This document shows, one piece after another, positions 33,311-62,505 of a DNA stretch of 64,000 bases. A program made the translations under genes and the position numbers. A model generated the notes under the pieces. The model worked only from the letters and a program-made list of their open reading frames with translations, searched no databases and was not told the DNA's origin. This DNA comes from Candidatus Rokuibacteriota bacterium (GTDB taxonomy: Bacteria > Methylomirabilota > Methylomirabilia > Rokubacteriales > CSP1-6), in assembly GCA_003220345.1 (NCBI GenBank), contig QHSC01000101.1:5693-69692 (forward strand). Reading direction: 5' to 3'. Numbering within the stretch: position 1 is the first letter of the stretch; each line of letters begins with the position of its first letter.

Positions 33311-34195
33311 ATGCAACGGACGGTCTTCCGGAGTTGGTGGCTGCCATACGTGCTGGTCTTTCCCCAGATGGCGGTGACCGTGGTCTTTTTCTTCTGGCCC
33401 GCCCTCAAGTCCCTCCAGCTCTCCGTGTACCGCGTCTCGCCCTTCGGCGACACCATGACCTTCATCGGCCTGGAGAACTTCACCAAGCTGCTCGCCGATC
33501 CCGAGTACTACCGGAGCGTGGCCAACTCCCTCGTCTTCGCGGCGGGGGTGACGGTGCTGGCGGTGGCGGGGGCGCTCGTGCTCGCCGCCCTCGCCACCCA
33601 GAAGATCCGGGGCCTGGCCGCCTACCGGACGCTCCTCCTCTGGCCCTACGGCATCGCGCCCGCAGTGTCGGGCATCATCTTCCTCTTCATCTTCCATCCC
33701 ACCTACGGTGTGCTGACGTACTTCCTCTCCTTCGTGACGGCCTACGAGTTCAACTGGCTCCTCAAGGGTTGGGTGGCCATGACGCTGGTCATCGCGGCCA
33801 CGGCGTGGACGCACCTTGGCTACAACATCGCCTTCTACATCGCCGGGCTCCTCGCCATCCCCGGCGCCGTGATGGAGGCGGCGGACGTGGACGGGGCAGG
33901 GCCGGTGCGCCGCTTCCGCTCCATCGTCTTTCCCCTCGTCTCGCCCATCACGTTCTACCTCGTGGTGCTCAACATGGTGTTCGCGTTCTTCGAGTCCTTC
34001 GGCGTCATCGACGCCGTCACCAAGGGCGGACCTGGTGATTCGACCATGATCATGGTCTACAAGCTCTACAAGGACGGGTTCATCGGCCTGAACCTCGGCT
34101 CCTCCGGGGCCCAGTCGGTGATCCTGATGGCCCTCGTCATCGGCCTGACCATGCTCCAGTTCCGCTTCGCCGAGAAGAAAGTCACCTACCGATGA
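33311..34195 (+). CDS. ugpA: sn-glycerol-3-phosphate ABC transporter permease
   Basis: 294 aa with 6 TM helices. EAA-loop region AMEAADVDGAGPVRRFRSIVFPL is present. Confidence 0.85.
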   Translation: MQRTVFRSWWLPYVLVFPQMAVTVVFFFWPALKSLQLSVYRVSPFGDTMTFIGLENFTKLLADPEYYRSVANSLVFAAGVTVLAVAGALVLAALATQKIRGLAAYRTLLLWPYGIAPAVSGIIFLFIFHPTYGVLTYFLSFVTAYEFNWLLKGWVAMTLVIAATAWTHLGYNIAFYIAGLLAIPGAVMEAADVDGAGPVRRFRSIVFPLVSPITFYLVVLNMVFAFFESFGVIDAVTKGGPGDSTMIMVYKLYKDGFIGLNLGSSGAQSVILMALVIGLTMLQFRFAEKKVTYR

Positions 34196-35082
34196 GCGCC
34201 GTCGGCGCGGGGCAGCTCGAGCGGGTGCGCGTCGGCGCGGTGGCGGCGCCGCGGAAGAAGCCTTTCCTGTGGAACGCCGTGATCATCCATGCGCTGCTCA
34301 TCGCCTGCATCGCCGTGGTTGTCTTTCCCCTGTACTACGCCTTCGTCATCTCCACCCAGGACGTCCAGGAAGTGGTCCAGCGCCCGCCGCGGTTGGTTCC
34401 GTCCTCGCACCTCCTCGAGAACTACGCCCAGGCCTGGCGCAAGGCCCACATGGGCCGCATGCTCCTGAACAGCCTGGTCATGGCGGTCGCGGTGGCCGTG
34501 GGCAAGATCGTCATCTCCATGCTCTCGGCCTTCGCCATCGTCTACTTCGATTTCCGTGGGCGCATGCTCTGCTTCTGGATGATCTTCGTCACCCTCATGC
34601 TGCCGGTGCCGGTGCGCCTCATGTCCACGTACGAGGTCATCGGCACCCTCGGCTGGATCAACACGTATCAGGGGCTGGCCATCCCGCTCATGGCCTCGGC
34701 TACCGCCACCTTCCTCTTCCGCCAGTTCTACCTGACCATTCCCAACGAGCTGGCGGAGGCCGCGCAGCTCGACGGCGCCGGGCCCATCCGCTTCCTCTTC
34801 CAGTTCCTCCTGCCCCTGTCGTGGGCGAACATCGCCGCGCTCTTCGTGGTGCTCTTCATCTTCGGCTGGAACCAGTACCTGTGGCCGCTCCTCATCACCA
34901 ACACCGAGGCGATGCGGACCGTGGTCATCGGCCTCGAGGAGCTGATCCCGCGCAGCGGCACCGAGCTGCCCACCTGGAACCTCATCATGGCCGGCGCCAT
35001 GATGGCCCTCCTGCCTCCCGTGGCCATCATCATCTTCATGCAGCGCTGGTTCGTGAAGGGCCTCATCGAGAGCGAGAAATGA
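34192..35082 (+). CDS. ugpE: sn-glycerol-3-phosphate ABC transporter permease
   Basis: ATGA overlap with ugpA. EAA loop LAEAAQLDGAGPIRFLFQFLLPL is present. The stop TGA 35080-35082 lies inside the head of the downstream repeat. Confidence 0.85.
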   Translation: MSAVGAGQLERVRVGAVAAPRKKPFLWNAVIIHALLIACIAVVVFPLYYAFVISTQDVQEVVQRPPRLVPSSHLLENYAQAWRKAHMGRMLLNSLVMAVAVAVGKIVISMLSAFAIVYFDFRGRMLCFWMIFVTLMLPVPVRLMSTYEVIGTLGWINTYQGLAIPLMASATATFLFRQFYLTIPNELAEAAQLDGAGPIRFLFQFLLPLSWANIAALFVVLFIFGWNQYLWPLLITNTEAMRTVVIGLEELIPRSGTELPTWNLIMAGAMMALLPPVAIIIFMQRWFVKGLIESEK

Positions 35083-35208
35083 TGTTCGAGCTGAAGCGTG
35101 CGCCGAGCCGGAGGCGAGGGGCACGATGAGGCGAGGGCTGAGAGGATCGTTCGAGCTGAAGCGTGCGCCGAGCCGGAGGGCGAGGGGCACGATGAGGCGA
35201 GGGCTGAG
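35079..35208 (+). repeat. intercistronic tandem repeat, family 1, locus A (2 units, period 65 nt)
   Basis: Units 35084-35142 and 35149-35208 are identical apart from a 1-nt insertion. The head ATGATGTTCGAGCTGAAGCG contains the ugpE stop. The tail CACGATGAGGCGAGGGCTGAG ends 3 nt before the ugpQ ATG. Confidence 0.95.
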
Positions 35209-35211
35209 TTG

Positions 35212-36032
35212 ATGAGGTTTGTCTTGGTGGCGGGCTGGGCGCTCTTTGGGCTCGCCGTCGTCGCGGGCTCGGTGGGAGGGCAGGGGAAGCCCGCCACGCT
35301 CCTGGCCGCGCACCGCGGCGGCGCCCTTCTCTGGCCCGAGAACAGCCTCCTCGCCTTCCGGAACGCCGTCGCCCTCGGCGCCGATTTCATCGAGTTCGAC
35401 GTCCACCTGTCGAGGGACGGCGAGGTGATGGTCATCCACGATCCGACGCTCGAGCGGACGACGAACGGCCAGGGCGCGGTGAGGGACCGGACCGTCGCCG
35501 AGCTCAAGGCCCTCCGTCTCAAGGACAGGGCGGGTGTCCCCACCGGCGAGACCGTGCCCACGCTCGACGAGGTCATTGCCGTCGCGTCCCAGGCCGGCCG
35601 CCGCATGCTGCTGGAGATCAAGCTCGACGCCGGCCGCGCCCGCTACCCCGGCATCGAGGAGAAGGTCCTCGCCCTCCTCGACCGCCACCGCATGGCCGGC
35701 TCGACCGTGGTGATGGCCTTCGAGCCCGCCACCTGGAAGCGCATGAGGGAGCTGCGTCCCGATCTCGCCGTTTGCGCCCTCTACTCCGCCCGGATGCTCG
35801 GGCGCACGACGCTGGCCGCCGAGCTGGAGACGCTGCGGGCCGCCGGCGTCGGCTTCGTCGGTCTCGAGCACACGGTGGTGGACACGGCGGCGGTGGCGCG
35901 GGCGCGACAGGCGGGGATCCAGGTCGGCGCGTGGACGGTCAACGACGCCGCGGCCATGCAGCGCCTCATCGACGCCGGCGTCGGCGTGCTCATCACGGAC
36001 CAGCCGGACGTGGCCAAGGCGCTCCTGGGACG

Positions 36033-36036
<4 letters not shown>
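35212..36036 (+). CDS. ugpQ: glycerophosphodiester phosphodiesterase (secreted)
   Basis: ATG 35212. Signal peptide [24 protein letters not shown] motifs AHRGG...PENS and [17 protein letters not shown] are present. The upstream part of ORF 35098.. is repeat-derived. Confidence 0.85.
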
Positions 36037-53417: not shown

Positions 53418-54053
53418 ATGCCGGTCCTCACCGTCGCGCTGCCCAAGGGACGCTTGCTCGATCCCGCCCTCCAGCTCCTCTCCGCCATGGGCATCCAGGG
53501 CCTGGAGGCGGACACGCGCAAGCTCTTGCTCGCCGACGCCGAGCGGGATCTGCGCTTCATCTTTCTCAAGCCCGCCGACATTCCCACCTACGTCCAGTAC
53601 GGCGCGGCCGACCTCGGCATCGTGGGCAAGGACATCCTGGCCGAGCAGCAGCCCGACGTCTACGAGCCGGTGGACCTGGGCTTCGGCTTCTGCCGGCTCG
53701 TGGTCGCCGAGCCCCGCGAGCTCTGGGAGCGCGACGATCCCGCCAAGTGGTCGTGGGTTCGCGTGGCCACCAAGTATCCGACCCTGACCGAGCGCTATTT
53801 CTCCGAGCGCGGCATCCAGGTCGAGATGATCCGTCTCGACGGCTCCATCGAGCTCGCCCCCCTGGTGGGGCTGGCCGAGCGCATCGTGGATCTCGTCCAG
53901 TCGGGCGAGACCCTGCGGGCCAATGGCCTGGTGGAGGTCGCCGAGATCATGACCTCGACGGCCCGGTTGATCGTCAATCGCGCCTCGCTCAAGACGGCCC
54001 ATGCCCGCGTCAACGCTCTCATCGCGGCCATGCGTCAGGAAGTGGCGAAATGA
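53418..54053 (+). CDS. hisG: ATP phosphoribosyltransferase, short form
   Basis: 211 aa. N-terminus LTVALPKGRL, plus DIPTYVQYGAADLGIVGKD and DLVQSGETLRANGL motifs. There is no C-terminal regulatory domain. The stop TGA 54051-54053 lies in the repeat head. Confidence 0.92.
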   Translation: MPVLTVALPKGRLLDPALQLLSAMGIQGLEADTRKLLLADAERDLRFIFLKPADIPTYVQYGAADLGIVGKDILAEQQPDVYEPVDLGFGFCRLVVAEPRELWERDDPAKWSWVRVATKYPTLTERYFSERGIQVEMIRLDGSIELAPLVGLAERIVDLVQSGETLRANGLVEVAEIMTSTARLIVNRASLKTAHARVNALIAAMRQEVAK

Positions 54054-54178
54054 TGTTCGAGCCGAAGCGTGGGACGAGCCAGTGGCGAGGCACACGATGA
54101 GGCGAGGGCTGAATAGCTTGTTCGAGCCGAAGCGTGGGACGAGCCAGTGGCGAGGCACACGATGAGGCGAGGGCTGAG
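54050..54178 (+). repeat. intercistronic tandem repeat, family 1, locus B (2 units, period 65 nt)
   Basis: Units 54055-54113 and 54120-54178 are identical except for the last base. Each is 51/59 identical to locus A unit 1. The head ATGATGTTCGAGCCGAAGCG contains the hisG stop. Confidence 0.95.
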
Positions 54179-54194
54179 TAGATCGAGCTCTGAA

Positions 54195-55505
54195 GTGATC
54201 AGACGCCTGGACACGGCGCAGCTCGGCGCGGCCGGCGTGGCAAAGGCGCTCGACCGCCCGCCCGCCGCCGTGGACGCGGAGGTCCACCGACGCGTCGAGG
54301 AGATCCTGGCCGCCGTGCGCGAGAAGGGTGACGCCGCGCTCCTCGACTTCACCGAGCGCTTCGATCGCGTGCGACTGACGGCGGGGGAGCTGGCTGTGTC
54401 GTCGGCCGAGATGGAGGCGGCCCTGGGCGCGGTGGGCGAGGCGACCGTGCGGGCGCTCCGCTACGCGGCGGAGCGCATCGAGCGCTTCCACCGCGAGTGC
54501 GCCCCCCGCTCCTGGCGCATGACGGACGCGCTCGGCTCACGGCTGGGGCAGGAGGTGCGCCCGCTCGACCGCGTGGCCGTCTATGTTCCGGGCGGCCGGG
54601 CCGCGTATCCGTCCACCGTGCTCATGACGGTGATCCCCGCGCGGGTGGCGGGCGTCCGGGAGATCGTGCTCGTCTCGCCGCCCCGGCGCGACAAGTCGCT
54701 CGATCCCGCCGTCCTCGCTGCGGCCCGGGTGGCGGGCGTCACGGAGGCCTATCGGGTGGGCGGCGCCCAGGCGGTGGCCGCGCTCGCCTATGGCACGGAG
54801 ACCATCCGCCGGGTGGACAAGATCGTCGGTCCCGGCAATATCTATGTCGCGCTCGCGAAGAGCCGGGTTTTCGGCGACGTCGGCATCGACATGGTCGCAG
54901 GGCCGAGCGAGGTGGTGGTGGTGGCCGAGGCGGGCGCCGATCCTTCCTGGGTGGCCGCCGATCTCCTCGCGCAGGCCGAGCACGACCCCATGGCGCGCGC
55001 CGTCCTCCTCACGCCTTCGACCGCGCTCATCGATGGCGTGGCCGCCGAAGTGGAGCGCCAGCTCGCGCGCTTGCCGCGCAAGGAGATCGCCGGGGCCGCC
55101 TTGAAGTCCCACGGCGCCCTGGTATTGACGCGGAGTCTGGAGGAGGCCGTCGAGATCGCCAATCTCCTGGCCCCGGAGCATCTCGAGCTCCAGGTCACCG
55201 ATCCCGAGAGCTGGCTCGCGCGCGTGCGGAACGCCGGCGCCGTGTTTCTCGGTTCGTACACGCCCGAGGTGATCGGCGACTACGTCGCCGGGCCCAACCA
55301 CGTTCTGCCCACCGGCGGCACCGCACGCTTCGCCTCGGCGCTGTCCACCGAGGACTTCGTCAAGCGCCTGAGCGTCATCGAGTACGCCAGGGCGGGGCTC
55401 GCGGAGGCGGGCCCGCACGTGGCGGAGCTCGCCCGCGTCGAGGGGCTCGACGGCCACGCCGCCGCCGCCGCGGTTCGCATCGAGAACACTGGAGGTCGGA
55501 CATGA
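54195..55505 (+). CDS. hisD: histidinol dehydrogenase
   Basis: Motifs VYVPGG.AAYPSTVLM, GPGNIYV and AEHDP are present. GTG 54195 is the preferred start because the upstream ATGs (54147, 54162) lie inside repeat unit 2. Confidence 0.88.
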   Translation: MIRRLDTAQLGAAGVAKALDRPPAAVDAEVHRRVEEILAAVREKGDAALLDFTERFDRVRLTAGELAVSSAEMEAALGAVGEATVRALRYAAERIERFHRECAPRSWRMTDALGSRLGQEVRPLDRVAVYVPGGRAAYPSTVLMTVIPARVAGVREIVLVSPPRRDKSLDPAVLAAARVAGVTEAYRVGGAQAVAALAYGTETIRRVDKIVGPGNIYVALAKSRVFGDVGIDMVAGPSEVVVVAEAGADPSWVAADLLAQAEHDPMARAVLLTPSTALIDGVAAEVERQLARLPRKEIAGAALKSHGALVLTRSLEEAVEIANLLAPEHLELQVTDPESWLARVRNAGAVFLGSYTPEVIGDYVAGPNHVLPTGGTARFASALSTEDFVKRLSVIEYARAGLAEAGPHVAELARVEGLDGHAAAAAVRIENTGGRT

Positions 55506-58248: not shown

Positions 58249-58890
58249 ATGACTACCGAGCTGAAATGGGACGGCCAGGGGCTCATTCCCGCCGTGGCCC
58301 AGGAGACGGAGACGGGCGAGGTGCTCATGGTCGCCTGGATGGACCGCGAGGCCCTCGCCAAGACGCTCACGACGGGGCTGGCCCACTACTGGTCGCGCGA
58401 GCGCCGGGCCCTCTGGCGCAAAGGGGAGACGTCCGGACACACCCAGCACGTCGACGGCGTCTTTGCCGACTGCGATCGCGACACCCTTCTGGTCCAGGTG
58501 CACCAGGACGGCGTCGCCTGCCACACGGGCGCGCGGACCTGCTTCTTCACCCGGCTCGCGGGAAGCGCGTCGCCGTCCCCGGCGGGGGCGGGCCCGGCCC
58601 TCCTCGAGGTGGTGGAGCGCGTGCTCCAGTCGCGCAAGGTAGAGCGTCCGGCCGGCTCCTACACCGCGTCGCTCTTCGAGCGCGGCGAGGCGCAGATCTG
58701 CCGGAAGATCGGCGAGGAGGCGACCGAGGTGGTGACGGCGGCCCTCGGCGGGGAGGGCGACGGGCGCGTCGTTTCGGAGGTGGCCGATCTCTGGTTCCAC
58801 AGCATGGTCCTCCTCGCCTCTCGCGGCATCCCGCTGCGCCGGGTCTTCGAAGAGCTCGCGCGGCGCCACGGCGAGAAGAGCCCGGCATGA
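58249..58890 (+). CDS. hisI: bifunctional phosphoribosyl-AMP cyclohydrolase / phosphoribosyl-ATP pyrophosphatase
   Basis: N-terminal HisI (GLIPAVAQE...WSRER..LW.KGETSG) and C-terminal HisE ([10 protein letters not shown]...KIGEEA.E...E.ADL.FH). Confidence 0.92.
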
Positions 58891-59396
58891 GGTCACCCGC
58901 GCTCGGGCCGACGGCCTTTCTCCTTCTCGCCTTCGTGGCCGCGGGCTGCAGCGCGGGGCGGATCGAGAGCGGCGTGTACTATTCGTCCAAGGGCTATCAC
59001 GTGAGCCTGCCGTCCCCGGGCTGGTCGGTGAAGCGCGGAGGCGCCGCCGACCTCGAGCTCCAGCGCGCGACGCCGCCGGGCGGCATGCTCGCCGACGCCA
59101 CCTGCGAGGACACGGCTCTTCGACGCCCGCTCGACGTCCTGACGCGCCACCTGACCTTCGGCCTCAAGGAGCGCGTCGTCGAGGAGAGCGGCCCGCTCAC
59201 TGTGGGCGGGCGCTCGGCTCAGCGCGCGGTGCTCCGGGGCAGCCTGGACGGCACGCCGGTCGAGGTCGAGGCGATCGTGATCAAGGGCGACCAGTGCGTC
59301 TACGATTTCCTCTACGTGGCGTCCCCCGAAGACTTCGCGGCGGGCCGCGAGGAGTTCCGCGCCTTCGTGGAGAGCGTGAACGGGAGCGTCCGATGA
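58887..59396 (+). CDS. hypothetical lipoprotein
   Basis: ATGA overlap with hisIE. Lipobox [10 protein letters not shown] recognise no family. Stop TGA at 59394-59396. Confidence 0.6.
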
Positions 59397-59398
59397 GC

Positions 59399-59540
59399 GG
59401 GAGACGATTCCGATGAGCGCTTGCGCGAAGAGGCCCCCAGCTCGCGCCTCCTCCTCCACCGGGAGACGATTCCGATGAGCGCTTGCGCGAAGAGGCCCCC
59501 AGCTCGCGCCTCCTCCTCCACCGGGAGACGATTCCGATGA
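59399..59540 (+). repeat. perfect 62-bp tandem repeat, 2.3 copies, at the lipoprotein/mlaE junction
   Basis: 59399-59460 equals 59461-59522, and 59523-59540 equals the first 18 nt. The unit is GGGAGACGATTCCGATGAGCGCTTGCGCGAAGAGGCCCCCAGCTCGCGCCTCCTCCTCCACC. The last partial copy carries the mlaE ATG (59537). Confidence 0.97.
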
Positions 59541-60316
59541 CCGTGTGGGCGTACGCGCGGCGCCAGGGGCAGGAATCCGTGGCGTGGTACGGCGGGCTCG
59601 GCCTCCTCGCCATCGAGGCCGCGCGCAACGTCAGGCTCCCGCCCTCCTATCTGATCATCGTGGCCCAGCAGATCGACCTGATCGGCGTGCGCTCGCTCGT
59701 CGTCGCCCTCACGGCCGGGCTCTTCACGGGCATGGTCCTGGCCCTCCAGAGCGCCGTGAACATGGCGCGGTTCGGGGCGGAGAACTACGTCGGGCCCATC
59801 GTGGCCCTCTCGATGCTGCGCGAGCTCGGGCCGGTGCTCACGGCCATCCTGGTGGGAGGCAAGGTCGCCTCCGGCATCACGGCGGAGCTGGGCTCCATGA
59901 AGGTGACGGAACAGATCGACGCGCTCCGTGCCCTCGGCGTCAACTACGTCAAGAGGCTGATCGTGCCGCGCCTGCTCGCCGCCCTCGTGGTATTCCCCCT
60001 CGTGACCATCCTGGCCGATGCCGTCGGTCTCTTCGGCGGCATGCTCGTCGTGGTCTTCGACCGCGCGGTGGATGGCTATCTCTACTGGAACACCATCTCC
60101 TACTGGGTGGTGATGCGCGATTTCCTGACGGGCATCGCCAAGAGCGTGGTCTTCGGCGCCCTCGTCACCCTCATCGGCTGCTACAACGGGCTCGGGACGG
60201 AGGGCGGCACCGAAGGGCTGGGCCGCTCCACGACCGACACGGTGGTCCAGGTCGCCATGGCCGTGATCATCTCGGACTTCTTCCTCACCAAGCTCTTCTT
60301 CATCCTCTTCTGGTGA
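59537..60316 (+). CDS. mlaE: MlaE-family ABC transporter permease
   Basis: 259 aa. Motifs LGPVLTAILVGGKVASGITAELGSMKVTEQIDAL are typical of MlaE/TGD1. The upstream ORF part (from 59483) is repeat-derived. Confidence 0.88.
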   Translation: MTVWAYARRQGQESVAWYGGLGLLAIEAARNVRLPPSYLIIVAQQIDLIGVRSLVVALTAGLFTGMVLALQSAVNMARFGAENYVGPIVALSMLRELGPVLTAILVGGKVASGITAELGSMKVTEQIDALRALGVNYVKRLIVPRLLAALVVFPLVTILADAVGLFGGMLVVVFDRAVDGYLYWNTISYWVVMRDFLTGIAKSVVFGALVTLIGCYNGLGTEGGTEGLGRSTTDTVVQVAMAVIISDFFLTKLFFILFW

Positions 60317-61080
60317 TGGATCCCGTGACGCCCGCTCCCGAGATTCCCGTCGAGCTCCGAGAGGTGCGGAAGTCCTTCGGGGACAAGCCGGTGCTCCAGG
60401 GCGTGAGCCTGGCCCTCCGCAAGGGCACCACGCTGGCCGTCATGGGCGGGAGCGGCGCGGGCAAGACCGTGCTCCTGCGCATCACGGACGGGCTGATCCG
60501 GCCCGACGCCGGGCAGGTGACGCTCTTCGGGACCCACATCGAGCGCATGCGCGAAGAAGCGATGCTGCCGCTCCGGAAGCGCGCCGGCTTCGTGTTCCAG
60601 GGCGCCGCCCTCTTCGACTCGCTCTCCGTCTTCGAGAACGTCGCCTTCCCGCTCCGCGAGCACACCAGCATGTCGCTCGGGGAGATCACGGACCGCGTCC
60701 ATCGATCCCTGTCTGTGGTGGGATTGCCTGGGGTCGACGACCTCCTGCCCGCGGAGCTCTCCGGTGGCATGCGCAAGCGGGTCGGCATCGCCCGCGCCCT
60801 CGTGCTGGAGCCCGAGGTCATCTTCTTCGACGAGCCCACGGCCGGGCTCGACCCTACCAACGCCAGGCTGGTGGCCGAGCTGATGGCCTCGCTGCGGGAA
60901 GGGGTCTGCGACACCGCCATCGTGGTCACCCACGACATCGAGTTCGCCAACATGATCGCCGATCAGATGGCCATCCTTCACCAGGGACGCATCGCGGACA
61001 TCGGCACCCCGGCCGAGATGCGCGCCTCGTCCAACCCCGACGTCCGCCGCTTCCTCGCGGGCGAGCTGCGCGAAGAATGA
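60316..61080 (+). CDS. mlaF: MlaF-family ABC transporter ATP-binding protein
   Basis: TGATG overlap. Walker A GGSGAGKT, signature LSGGMRKR and Walker B IFFDEPTAGLDP are present. The stop TGA 61078-61080 lies in the repeat head. Confidence 0.9.
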   Translation: MDPVTPAPEIPVELREVRKSFGDKPVLQGVSLALRKGTTLAVMGGSGAGKTVLLRITDGLIRPDAGQVTLFGTHIERMREEAMLPLRKRAGFVFQGAALFDSLSVFENVAFPLREHTSMSLGEITDRVHRSLSVVGLPGVDDLLPAELSGGMRKRVGIARALVLEPEVIFFDEPTAGLDPTNARLVAELMASLREGVCDTAIVVTHDIEFANMIADQMAILHQGRIADIGTPAEMRASSNPDVRRFLAGELREE

Positions 61081-61307
61081 TGTTCGAGCTGAGGCGCTGC
61101 CGAGGAGCCGCAGGCGACGAGAGCGGCGAGGCGAGGGCTGAGATGATGTTCGAGCTGAGACGCTGCCCGCAGTTCGAGCTAAGCGGCGGCCGCTGGCCGT
61201 CGCGAGGCGAGAGCTGGGTTGATCCCGCAGGCGTGGCCGTTCGAGCTGAAGGGCGAAGCCCTGAGGCGAGGCCCGAGTGGATCAGCGGCGAGGCGAGGGC
61301 TGAATAG
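61077..61307 (+). repeat. intercistronic repeat array, family 1, locus C (about 4 partly degenerate units)
   Basis: GTTCGAGCT heads at 61082, 61148, 61172 and 61239. GAGGCGAGGGCTGA tails end at 61141 and 61303. Degenerate tails are at 61204-61217 and 61263-61272. The array ends 4 nt before the mlaD ATG. Confidence 0.9.
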
Positions 61308-61311
61308 GACC

Positions 61312-62505
61312 ATGCCCGACCATCGGTCCCTCGCGCTTCAGCTCCGCATCGGCGGCTTCGTCCTCGTGTCCCTCGCCGTCTTCCTCGCCATCATCTACCT
61401 GCTGGGCGCCCGCGCCCGCTACTTCGAGAGGAAGTACGAGCTGGTGGCCGAGTTCACGGAGGTCGGGGGCCTCATCGAGGGCGCCACCGTCCGCCTGGCC
61501 GGCGTTCAGATCGGCCGGGTCACCGGCGTGACCCTGTCGCCCAAGGCGGGCACCAAGGTGCGGGTGACCATGACGGTGGCGCGGCGCTTCCACGACCGCA
61601 TCCGCCGCGATTCCGAGGCGCGCATCGCCACCCAGGGCCTGCTCGGCGACAAGATCGTGGAGATCACCAGCGGCTCGCCGGATGCCCCGCCCCTCGCGCC
61701 CGGGGAGACGCTGACCGCACGCGAGACGTTCGAGATGGGCCGTATGTTCGCCGAGGGCGCTGGCACGCTCGCCGCCGTCAACCAGCTCGTGTCGACTGTC
61801 CGTGCCGCCGTCGATCGGCTCGACAAGAGCGGCGCCGTCGACGACCTCGGGGCGGCCGCCAGCTCCGCGCGCCGAATCACCAACGAGGTCGAGAAGGGGC
61901 GGGGATGGCTCCACGTCCTGGTCTACGAGGAGCCGGAAGCTCTCCGGCGGCTCAATGCCATCCTCATCTCGGCAGAAGGCCTCCTGGCTCGGACGGAGAG
62001 CGGGGAGAGCGCCGTCGGGGTCCTCCTATCCAAGGACAGCGCGAAATCCGGCCGAGCGCTCCTGGCCGCGCTCGATGCCCTGGGCCGGGCTGCGGAAAAG
62101 CCGGGGCCGGCGGACGGCTTGCTTCCCGCACTCCTCTTCGACCCCGAGTATCGTCCGGTGGCGCGGGATCTCCAGATCCTGGCGCGGAATTTCCGCGACG
62201 TGTCCGAGAAGCTGGCCCGAGGCGAGGGCGTGCTCGGGGGCCTCATTCAGGGCGGGAACGAGGACAGCATGGGCCAGGCCGGCGTGGACGTGCGGGCCGC
62301 CCTCGCCAATCTCCGCGCGGTGAGCGAGAAGCTCAATGCCGGCGAGGGCACTCTGGGGAAGCTCGTGGTCGACCCGACGCTGTACGAGAGCATGGTCTCG
62401 TTTCTCGAGGGCGCGCAGCGCAGCTTTCTCCTGCGCGCCCTCATACGCTCCACCATCAAGACGGGCGACAGGGCCAAGGAACAAGTGGTGGCGCCAAAAC
62501 CCTGA
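61312..62505 (+). CDS. mlaD: MCE/MlaD-family protein with long C-terminal helical extension
   Basis: N-terminal TM helix (IGGFVLVSLAVFLAIIYLL) and MCE domain (GGLIEGATVRLAGVQIGRVTGV). These are followed by ~250 aa of Ala/Leu/Arg-rich, apparently helical sequence. Confidence 0.85.
   Translation: MPDHRSLALQLRIGGFVLVSLAVFLAIIYLLGARARYFERKYELVAEFTEVGGLIEGATVRLAGVQIGRVTGVTLSPKAGTKVRVTMTVARRFHDRIRRDSEARIATQGLLGDKIVEITSGSPDAPPLAPGETLTARETFEMGRMFAEGAGTLAAVNQLVSTVRAAVDRLDKSGAVDDLGAAASSARRITNEVEKGRGWLHVLVYEEPEALRRLNAILISAEGLLARTESGESAVGVLLSKDSAKSGRALLAALDALGRAAEKPGPADGLLPALLFDPEYRPVARDLQILARNFRDVSEKLARGEGVLGGLIQGGNEDSMGQAGVDVRAALANLRAVSEKLNAGEGTLGKLVVDPTLYESMVSFLEGAQRSFLLRALIRSTIKTGDRAKEQVVAPKP

Follow-up and report, generated by a model that had tools for sequence, protein, structure and literature searches.

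A family of intercistronic hairpin repeats in Rokubacteria with properties like those of mycobacterial interspersed repetitive units

Arrays of a short repeat occupy three intercistronic gaps in a 64,000-nucleotide stretch of Candidatus Rokuibacteriota DNA (assembly GCA_003220345.1, contig QHSC01000101.1, positions 5,693 to 69,692 of the forward strand; hereafter the window). The gaps are those between an ABC permease and a glycerophosphodiester phosphodiesterase (GDPD) gene, between hisG and hisD, and between an ABC ATPase and an MlaD-family gene (loci A, B and C, respectively). The reading favored here, with a probability of roughly 0.6, is that the repeat is a non-autonomous selfish or neutral element similar in kind to the interspersed repetitive units of mycobacteria (MIRUs), and that its sense copies persist in operons by virtue of features built into the unit. 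By analogy, the family appears to work as MIRUs do, although this does not imply that the two are related.

The three arrays (35084-35208, 54055-54194 and 61082-61303) contain seven clear units and one split unit, all on the + strand, and the sequence reads as an initial annotation, made from the DNA alone, had described it. Each array opens with ATGATGTTCGAGC, and the TGA within this common opening, also first pointed out there, terminates the upstream open reading frame (ORF). The arrays are far beyond chance. The head pattern matches 10 times in the window where 2.05 matches are expected (0 of 100 shuffles reach 10), and the tail pattern matches 10 times where 2.41 are expected, again with no shuffle reaching 10. 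A covariance model (R1), used for scoring units both in the window and in the loci from the species-genome scan described below, finds exactly 7 units in the window, with scores of 33-86 bits and E values of 2e-8 to 5e-26; the next match scores 18.8 bits. Units A1 and B1 are identical at 51 of 59 positions without gaps, and a count by hand reproduces this earlier figure. At locus A the two units begin 65 nt apart and differ by one inserted G. The possibility that the arrays are assembly artefacts, raised at the outset, is removed by their recurrence in independent NCBI, JGI and ENA assemblies. Of the 60 called genes, 58 are on the + strand; overlaps of 4 nt join 12 co-directional neighbor pairs, and overlaps of 1 nt join 5. 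In this very compact genome, the three repeat-filled gaps stand out. At each junction the flanking genes, which were identified with Pfam, belong to one pathway or transporter.

A scan of 185,579 species genomes for the head and tail patterns, with exact ends required, returned 93 stretches, nearly all from metagenome-assembled genomes (MAGs) of Methylomirabilota/Rokuibacteriota. A covariance-model search, one of the checks proposed in the initial annotation, gave about 150 family matches in these loci, almost all of them intergenic; an nhmmer model of 5 units, which fell short of the regular-expression and covariance-model searches in sensitivity, was dropped. A handful of matches in Microbacterium, Elainella and Anaerolineae have atypical centers and look like chance, as does the single match among viral contigs (23.7 bits, atypical center), so that nothing at the sequence level suggests a viral link. 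Typical copies also occur on short contigs binned as Vicinamibacteria, Thermoanaerobaculia, Solirubrobacterales and 'uncultured bacterium' (loci L001, L043, L047 and L048), and mis-binning of Methylomirabilota contigs is a likelier explanation for them than any other, horizontal spread included. At the gathering thresholds of Rfam 15 there is no match in the window or in six class III loci. A literature search with exact unit motifs (one tail, two head variants and one reverse complement) returned unrelated primers only, and nothing relevant was found in the literature on Rokubacteria intergenic repeats. As far as Rfam 15 and these four motifs go, the view that this is not a described element stands. 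Its kind has a precedent in MIRUs, described with the same properties in PMC12548453 and PMC3184786.

The units range from 38 to 66 nt and are arranged head to tail, all clustered units being direct, and the family is modular. Class II, the type in the window, includes the 58-66-nt units and their mosaics. Class I is a 44-nt unit that always has the palindrome CCCTCTCCCCC-N4-GGGGGAGAGGG-CCGCA ahead of it and GATGGTGAGGGGG behind it; this compound repeat has no copy in the window, and examples are found in L011 (e.g. 185-275), L013, L027, L041, L046, L060, L070, L078 and about 40 other loci. Class III comprises a 58-nt unit inside a longer repeat of about 250 nt with conserved flanks (..GAGTGGGACCCCCGAGTCCCGTCCGCAGCTCAAAGCA[58-nt unit]GTTGAGTCTGCGTTCGGGCGAGTGGGTGAC..), present in at least 4 copies per MAG and without an Rfam match (L005, L006:4800-5100, L021, L023, L053, L054, L059 and L079).

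Another proposed check, a comparison of orthologous junctions, revealed element-free sites that consist of overlaps or of 1-2-nt spacers. In relatives with 92-95% HisG identity, hisG and hisD overlap by 4 nt (AAATGATAAGG, AAGTGATCAGG and CGGTGATCCGA). Closer relatives have one unit (L092), two units and a remnant (the window) or five units (L174/175) at this junction, and AAATGAT or AGATGAT flanks the insert on both sides. About 65 of the 78 orthologous permease/GDPD junctions from metagenomes are likewise empty, with a GTGA or ATGA overlap or with 1-2 nt between stop and start. The 13 filled sites fall mainly in two neighboring clades of the UgpE tree, interleaved with empty ones, and contain different mosaics around an outer unit of the CGUG...CACG subtype; this count includes two variant-head arrays placed elsewhere on the tree. 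In these two (L118:2052-2190 and L133:967-1100), the tandem units have the head TGGCGAGCC or CGACGATCC rather than GTTCGAGC and an unchanged central hairpin, which suggests a diverged sub-family or an eroded head. In L103 (2395-2530), the ugpQ homologue after the array has ATA where its relatives have ATG, GTG or TTG, and it may use a non-canonical start or have lost its start. No element-free relative was among those retrieved for the ABC-ATPase/MlaD junction. A relative 95% identical in DNA (L032) has a 102-nt array there, compared with 231 nt in the window; its native stop is kept separate (GAATGAccATGATGTTCGAGC), and its C-terminal codons and stop position are those of the window. In a relative 78.5% identical in DNA, TAG is followed by cTGAT and then by the head.

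These alignments bear on the earlier suggestion that the repeat supplies the stop codon of the upstream gene. At the hisG/hisD and permease junctions, the stop is found at the same position as in element-free relatives, so the suggestion is only partly correct; what the element adds is a second (A)TGA(T) copy that restores the downstream start. Insertion duplicates or regenerates the stop/start motif, leaving (A)TGA(T) on both sides, and the (T)GAT ahead of the head moves with the element or with its target. A strict TGAT target was ruled out, as heads also follow TGAA, TGAC, CGCA or GGCA.

Unit number differs between relatives that are about 95% identical in DNA. Between the window and L094, the permease gene has 0 differences in 888 positions, but both repeat units differ at one shared position (C/A), and the array architecture differs. 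Arrays grow and shrink by tandem duplication and deletion, in the manner of variable-number tandem repeats (VNTRs), with concerted change. Local duplication or concerted evolution had been proposed from the window alone, and the same comparison agrees with it. The empty and filled junctions, direct repeats, nested units and VNTR-like unit numbers similarly favor the earlier proposal of a non-autonomous mobile element at gene ends. The other option proposed there, an RNA-level intercistronic module, finds some favor in a hairpin that is stable as RNA on the sense strand only, in the unvarying U-G pairs and in the constraint on the units, all described below.

Position and orientation were tabulated from copy lists that combined regular-expression and covariance-model matches with codon-bias gene calls. 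In tandem-gene contexts, class II includes 33-35 sense and 3-7 antisense arrays (p = 1.5e-5 for 35 versus 7), whereas class I is evenly divided (10-13 versus 11-12) and fills convergent and divergent gaps as well. Strand specificity is thus a property of a subclass and not of the family: the initial claim of a strand-specific family survives for class II (about 35 sense versus 7 antisense) and fails for the 44-nt palindrome-linked subclass. That all copies in the window are oriented with transcription is correct, but with 58 of 60 genes on one strand this is uninformative there. Among 33 sense class II arrays, the head begins 1 nt past the stop in 10, including all three in the window, and in 17 the gap from the end of the tail to the called start is at most 9 nt, which places GAGG/AGGG 5-13 nt upstream of the start. 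The sense strand of the units is G-rich, with a GC skew of +0.26 to +0.39.

The fold of each unit is a single long, imperfect hairpin, and in native context the minimum-energy structure contains the stem that joins head and tail. In unit A1, the head is GTTCGAGC, the central hairpin is CGTGC.GCC/GGC.GCACG and the tail is GAGGCGAGGGCTGA. The head GUUC and the tail GGGC pair as G-C, U-G, U-G and C-G; inward of this stem are a symmetric GA/GA internal loop, GCY-GGC pairing and a variable central stem-loop. In an alignment of 32 distinct long units, 98.5% of cells show standard pairing, and five pairs change on both sides (51 cells: CGCU/AGCG, CACU/AGUG, CGUG/CACG, GACG/CGUC and CGGG/CCCG). The observed pairing score is reached by 0 of 500 shuffles, and slid controls pair at 31-47%. 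The two U-G pairs hardly vary, and the tandem G-A loop is invariant. The initial annotation had found only a short internal stem and had concluded that the repeat is not classically palindromic; the units are in fact long hairpins with a covarying stem, although the inverted arrangement of repetitive extragenic palindromic (REP) sequences and bacterial interspersed mosaic elements (BIMEs) is still absent. For unit A1, the sense RNA folds at -28.3 kcal/mol (z -3.4) and the antisense RNA at -15.1 kcal/mol (z -0.8). With DNA parameters, neither strand folds better than shuffles (z -1.6 to +1.3), and a DNA-level hairpin or cruciform was rejected for this reason. In two-unit arrays, the minimum-energy fold joins the head of unit 1 to the tail of unit 2.

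These features suggest how a MIRU-like element might be tolerated within operons. A spacing of about 20 nt abolishes termination-reinitiation coupling experimentally (PMC10666635); splitting a -4 overlap by 60-230 nt should therefore abolish coupling, and the element would thus need its own Shine-Dalgarno (SD) sequence or relay ORFs. Three features of the element compensate: stops at the 5' end, a purine-rich, SD-like tail (GAGGCGAGGG) 5-13 nt ahead of a regenerated 3' start, and a mini-ORF relay that about half of the arrays contain. Relays were scored by a script that defined a chain by gaps of 5 nt or less, with the reverse complement as control; chains with ATGA/TGATG overlaps are present in 16 of 31 sense arrays compared with 5 of 31 controls, and at all three window loci. 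Sense copies would be retained in operons in that only this orientation gives a stop, an SD sequence and a start; the sense RNA is G-rich and structured, and the antisense RNA would be C-rich and poorly folded. Head-tail pairing in the mRNA would mask the SD sequence, and a ribosome terminating 1 nt ahead of the head, or translating the relay mini-ORFs, would open the stem and expose it, keeping downstream translation tied to upstream translation.

Several points weigh against this reading. The copies from species genomes were picked by their exact heads and tails, and the gene calls within loci come from a codon-bias caller written for this analysis. Neither a transposase nor terminal inverted repeats were found, nor a target duplication free of ambiguity, as the (T)GAT at the flank may belong to the end of the element itself. 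Searching 0.93 Mb by tblastn with E. coli RayT gave a best E value of 0.4, which is uninformative on whole genomes. Replication-relative and transcription-relative orientation are inseparable here. The relay chains exist only in the 16 sense arrays given above. Shuffled sequences fold as stably as the 60-nt alpha unit (z 0.05), the structure of which is therefore supported by covariation alone. Finally, orthologous units diverge 3-4 times more slowly than the four-fold degenerate sites of the adjacent gene: 5.2% versus 12.9% for A1 and L096, 11.7% versus 38% for A1 and L099/L100, 1.7% versus 8.7% for B1 and L092, and 5.2% versus 21% for B1 and L174. Head and tail are nearly invariant even at loci retrieved by protein rather than by repeat. 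This constraint exceeds the need of a purely selfish element and is compatible with a host function.

A further reading, put forward tentatively, makes the unit a portable cassette for translational coupling that selection maintains, perhaps together with a trans-acting factor able to recognize the invariant stem. The head would lie within the footprint of a ribosome terminating on the upstream gene, and the invariant G-U pairs and tandem G-A loop would pair it with the tail, the only SD sequence of the downstream gene, so that downstream initiation could occur only once upstream translation or the mini-ORF relay had melted the stem. If so, the unit would be a mobile device of natural origin, one that disrupts a stop/start overlap and then maintains or adjusts stoichiometric expression.

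The main rival explanation, that the unit is a host-beneficial RNA module in which an intercistronic hairpin is selected to set the relative expression of operon genes and spread is secondary, is rather unlikely. It could act by SD masking with translational coupling, by protecting the upstream mRNA from 3' exonucleases or by RNase processing. The slow divergence, the near-invariant ends at protein-found loci, the fixed U-G pairs and G-A loop beside a covarying central stem, and the stable fold on the sense RNA strand only all fit it, as does the retention of an mlaF/mlaD array in the relative that is only 78.5% identical in DNA. The distribution of the arrays does not: they are patchy among close relatives, most relatives show just a 4-nt overlap at these junctions, near-identical genomes differ in copy number, the three operons have unrelated functions, and members of the sister subclass lie in either orientation, also between convergent or divergent genes. 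The constraint could also be purely cis, with the tail being the sole SD sequence once inserted. The selfish-repeat and host-regulatory readings are not mutually exclusive.

It is improbable that the unit is an element of the REP/REPIN type, or one derived from IS200/IS605, mobilized as single-stranded DNA by a Y1 (HUH) transposase and inserted 3' of a TGAT-like target, in which case the orientation bias would reflect the replication strand. ISDra2 inserts 3' of TTGAT, (T)GAT very often precedes the head here, and arrays often end in ...GAT; units in the loops of other units and the location of nearly all window genes on one strand also agree with such an origin. Against it, folding with DNA parameters gives the hairpins no stability beyond that of shuffles on either strand, the closing stem relies on G-U pairs, the units are direct rather than inverted pairs, CGCA, GGCA or TGAC and not GAT stands before many heads, and there is no RayT homologue in the 0.93 Mb searched (a weak test). 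Judged as a miniature inverted-repeat transposable element, which would have terminal inverted repeats and a target-site duplication, the repeat gives a mixed picture: inverted repeats were not seen at its ends, the head pairs with the tail imperfectly and with reliance on G-U pairs, and the short direct repeats that do occur are ambiguous.

That the arrays encode small proteins, in 16-76-codon ORFs starting at ATGATG, is very unlikely. ORFs with overlapping stops and starts do span all three gaps, and a public gene caller has annotated one on the repeat; however, conservation is at the level of nucleotides and base pairs, orthologous arrays disagree in the length and frame of their ORFs, such a chain is missing from half of the arrays, and unit periods of 65 and 66 nt shift the frame of successive units, an inconsistency for which this reading was rejected. 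A C/D-box-like K-turn RNA, or another described family, is barely credible. AUGAUG...CUGA at the ends of the first units in the window, the tandem G-A internal loop and weak Rfam matches to archaeal sR30 and sR3 in an E-value scan of 35000-35300 recall such RNAs. These matches score 10.7 and 9.7 bits (E 2.4-3.6) against thresholds of 38 and 41, which effectively refutes a C/D-box sRNA, and nothing reaches the Rfam gathering thresholds; in addition, box-to-box spacers are 5-7 nt where C/D-box guides, with C (RUGAUGA) and D (CUGA) boxes, require about 12 nt, and the 'C box' is missing from most family members, in which the head follows CGCA.

Three further identities were discarded. Integron attC sites have the core sites R' GTTRRRY and R'' RYYYAAC, lie at the 3' end of a cassette and have an integrase nearby; the head GTTCGAG misfits GTTRRRY, and the hosts are housekeeping his, ugp-like and mla operons. 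An intrinsic terminator would be a G+C-rich hairpin with a U run behind it, whereas here GAGWWGAT and a start codon come after the tail and a T run is lacking, and the likeness of GTTCGA to a tRNA T-arm was dismissed on sequence features.

Coordinates of the repeat units, the ORFs that run through them and the flanking genes in the window

Feature	Position	Strand	Evidence
UgpE-like ABC permease, upstream of locus A	34192..35082	+	Pfam BPD_transp_1, E 3.9e-14; stop TGA 35080-35082 within ATGATGTTCGAGC
Two-mini-ORF chain, locus A	35079..35212	+	ORF-relay script, maximum gap -4
Unit A1	35084..35142	+	Covariance model R1 76.2 bits, E 1e-22; RNA fold -28.3 kcal/mol, z -3.4, head-tail paired
Unit A2 (copy of A1 with one added G)	35149..35208	+	Covariance model 70.3 bits; sequence
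UgpQ-like glycerophosphodiester phosphodiesterase, downstream of locus A	35212..36036	+	Pfam GDPD, E 9e-49
hisG	53418..54053	+	Pfam HisG, E 3.8e-57; stop TGA 54051-54053 within ATGATGTTCGAGC
Unit B1	54055..54113	+	Covariance model 70.6 bits; orthologue of the single L092 unit, 57/58 identical
Unit B2	54120..54178	+	Covariance model 70.6 bits; TRF period 65, 98% matches; same as B1 save last base
Putative third-unit remnant, (GTAGAT)CGAGCTCTGAA	54179..54194	+	L092 alignment; sequence; inference
hisD	54195..55505	+	Pfam Histidinol_dh, E 4e-171; empty-site orthologues
MlaF-like ABC ATPase	60313..61080	+	Pfam ABC_tran; stop TGA 61078-61080 within ATGATGTTCGAGC
76-codon ORF through the whole locus C array	61077..61307	+	ORF-relay script; sequence
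Unit C1, 60-nt alpha type	61082..61141	+	Covariance model 86.2 bits, E 5e-26
Composite unit, locus C	61148..61303	+	Covariance-model matches of 41.3 and 32.9 bits
MlaD-family gene, downstream of locus C	61312..62505	+	Pfam MlaD, E 4e-21

At locus A, the first mini-ORF runs from ATG 35079 to TGA 35127-29 and the second from ATG 35126 to TGA 35210-12; the overlap is ATGA with the permease stop, ATGA again between the two and TGATG with the GDPD start. The tail of A2, GAGGCGAGGG, ends 8 nt ahead of ATG 35212 and is a possible SD sequence for the GDPD gene, the product of which has an N-terminus that aligns with those of orthologues from empty sites.

The HisG encoded at locus B is identical to a Candidatus Rokuibacteriota MAG protein. 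The stretch that follows unit B2 may be a truncated third unit, in which a head fragment is fused to the end of a tail. GTG 54195 is the hisD start homologous to those of relatives (V/M-I-R-R-L-D), and the frame is also open from ATG 54162, which lies in unit B2. This ATG overlaps the stop of the preceding mini-ORF (ATGA) and has GAGG 6 nt upstream, whereas GTG 54195 has no SD sequence within about 15 nt; hisD may therefore have an 11-residue N-terminal extension encoded by the repeat.

The array at locus C is 222 nt long and begins with a unit of the alpha type, the commonest long form in other genomes. The composite unit after it has an outer part made up of a head (61148-55), ...GCTGCC, CCGCAGGCG and CAGCGGC with the tail (61290-61303), and two inner units (61172-61217 and 61239-61276) in the loop regions of the outer one. 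The same composites are present at unrelated loci of other genomes, and such arrays probably consist of units nested in the loops of other units. The ORF through the array begins at ATG 61077, in an ATGA overlap with the upstream stop, and ends at TAG 61305-07, which leaves 4 nt to the mlaD ATG. From the end of the last tail to ATG 61312 the distance is 8 nt; the 4 nt first reported for it is counted from the TAG.

Elsewhere in the window, a perfect 62-nt tandem repeat of 2.3 copies (59398-59540), with CGATGA in each copy, spans the junction of genes 58887-59396 and 59483-60316. L032, at about 95% DNA identity, has one copy fewer, which therefore points to a recent duplication of a stop/start junction region.

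If the MIRU-like reading is correct, the family would be a second, independent case of the MIRU strategy, in a distant uncultured phylum: a small repeat that colonizes the commonest and most sensitive operon junction, the -4/-1 stop/start overlap, and brings with it what both genes need for expression. Soil metagenomes offer many orthologous sites with and without the element, which amount to a natural experiment on what coupled translation requires after an overlap is split, and the hypervariable arrays could serve as VNTR strain markers for Rokubacteria. The arrays also mislead annotation, through spurious small ORFs, uncertain hisD and ugpQ starts and contigs that break inside them. One public 2.9-kb contig (L182:2745-2902) breaks off within a hisG/hisD array and has a 43-aa ORF called on the repeat, and the repeats thus both break assemblies and yield spurious ORF calls.

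Among known systems, the BOX elements of S. pneumoniae and the enterobacterial repetitive intergenic consensus (ERIC) sequences or intergenic repeat units (IRUs) are modular or structured intergenic repeats that are co-transcribed and have orientation-dependent effects on the expression of neighbors. They are not set precisely at stop/start overlaps and do not rebuild a stop, an SD sequence and a start, and their sequences and hosts are unrelated to those of the Rokubacteria repeat. REP/BIME sequences and the REPINs associated with REP-associated tyrosine transposases (RAYTs) are closer, being short, G+C-rich, extragenic hairpins of imperfect palindromes that are often intercistronic and transcribed, that form mosaic clusters with other motifs and that exist in many copies per genome. 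REPs alternate in orientation, whereas the Rokubacteria units are all head to tail, have no GTAG-type head and have a closing stem that needs G-U pairs and hence forms on one strand only; a RAYT was also not found in the 0.93 Mb searched, which is a weak test.

The closest likeness is to MIRUs. As described in PMC12548453 and PMC3184786, these are mobile units that insert at start codons and contain an internal ORF coupled with -4 spacing, and tetranucleotide direct repeats and empty and filled sites are known for them (Supply et al. 1997, as summarized in those papers). Both families consist of 40-100 bp units in direct tandem, located between the cistrons of operons in the orientation of the genes. 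Both have hypervariable unit numbers (VNTRs), insert at a start codon or stop/start overlap, and have empty and filled sites with short direct repeats, here at hisG/hisD and permease/GDPD with (A)TGA(T) on both sides. The host phylum differs, the likeness is one of described properties, and internal ORFs that overlap the flanking stop and start, although present at all three window loci, are found as relays in only about half of the Rokubacteria arrays. What is new in comparison with MIRUs is a covarying hairpin with an SD-like tail within its closing stem, an architecture of nested mosaics, and a sister subclass that is fused to a perfect palindrome and has no orientation bias.

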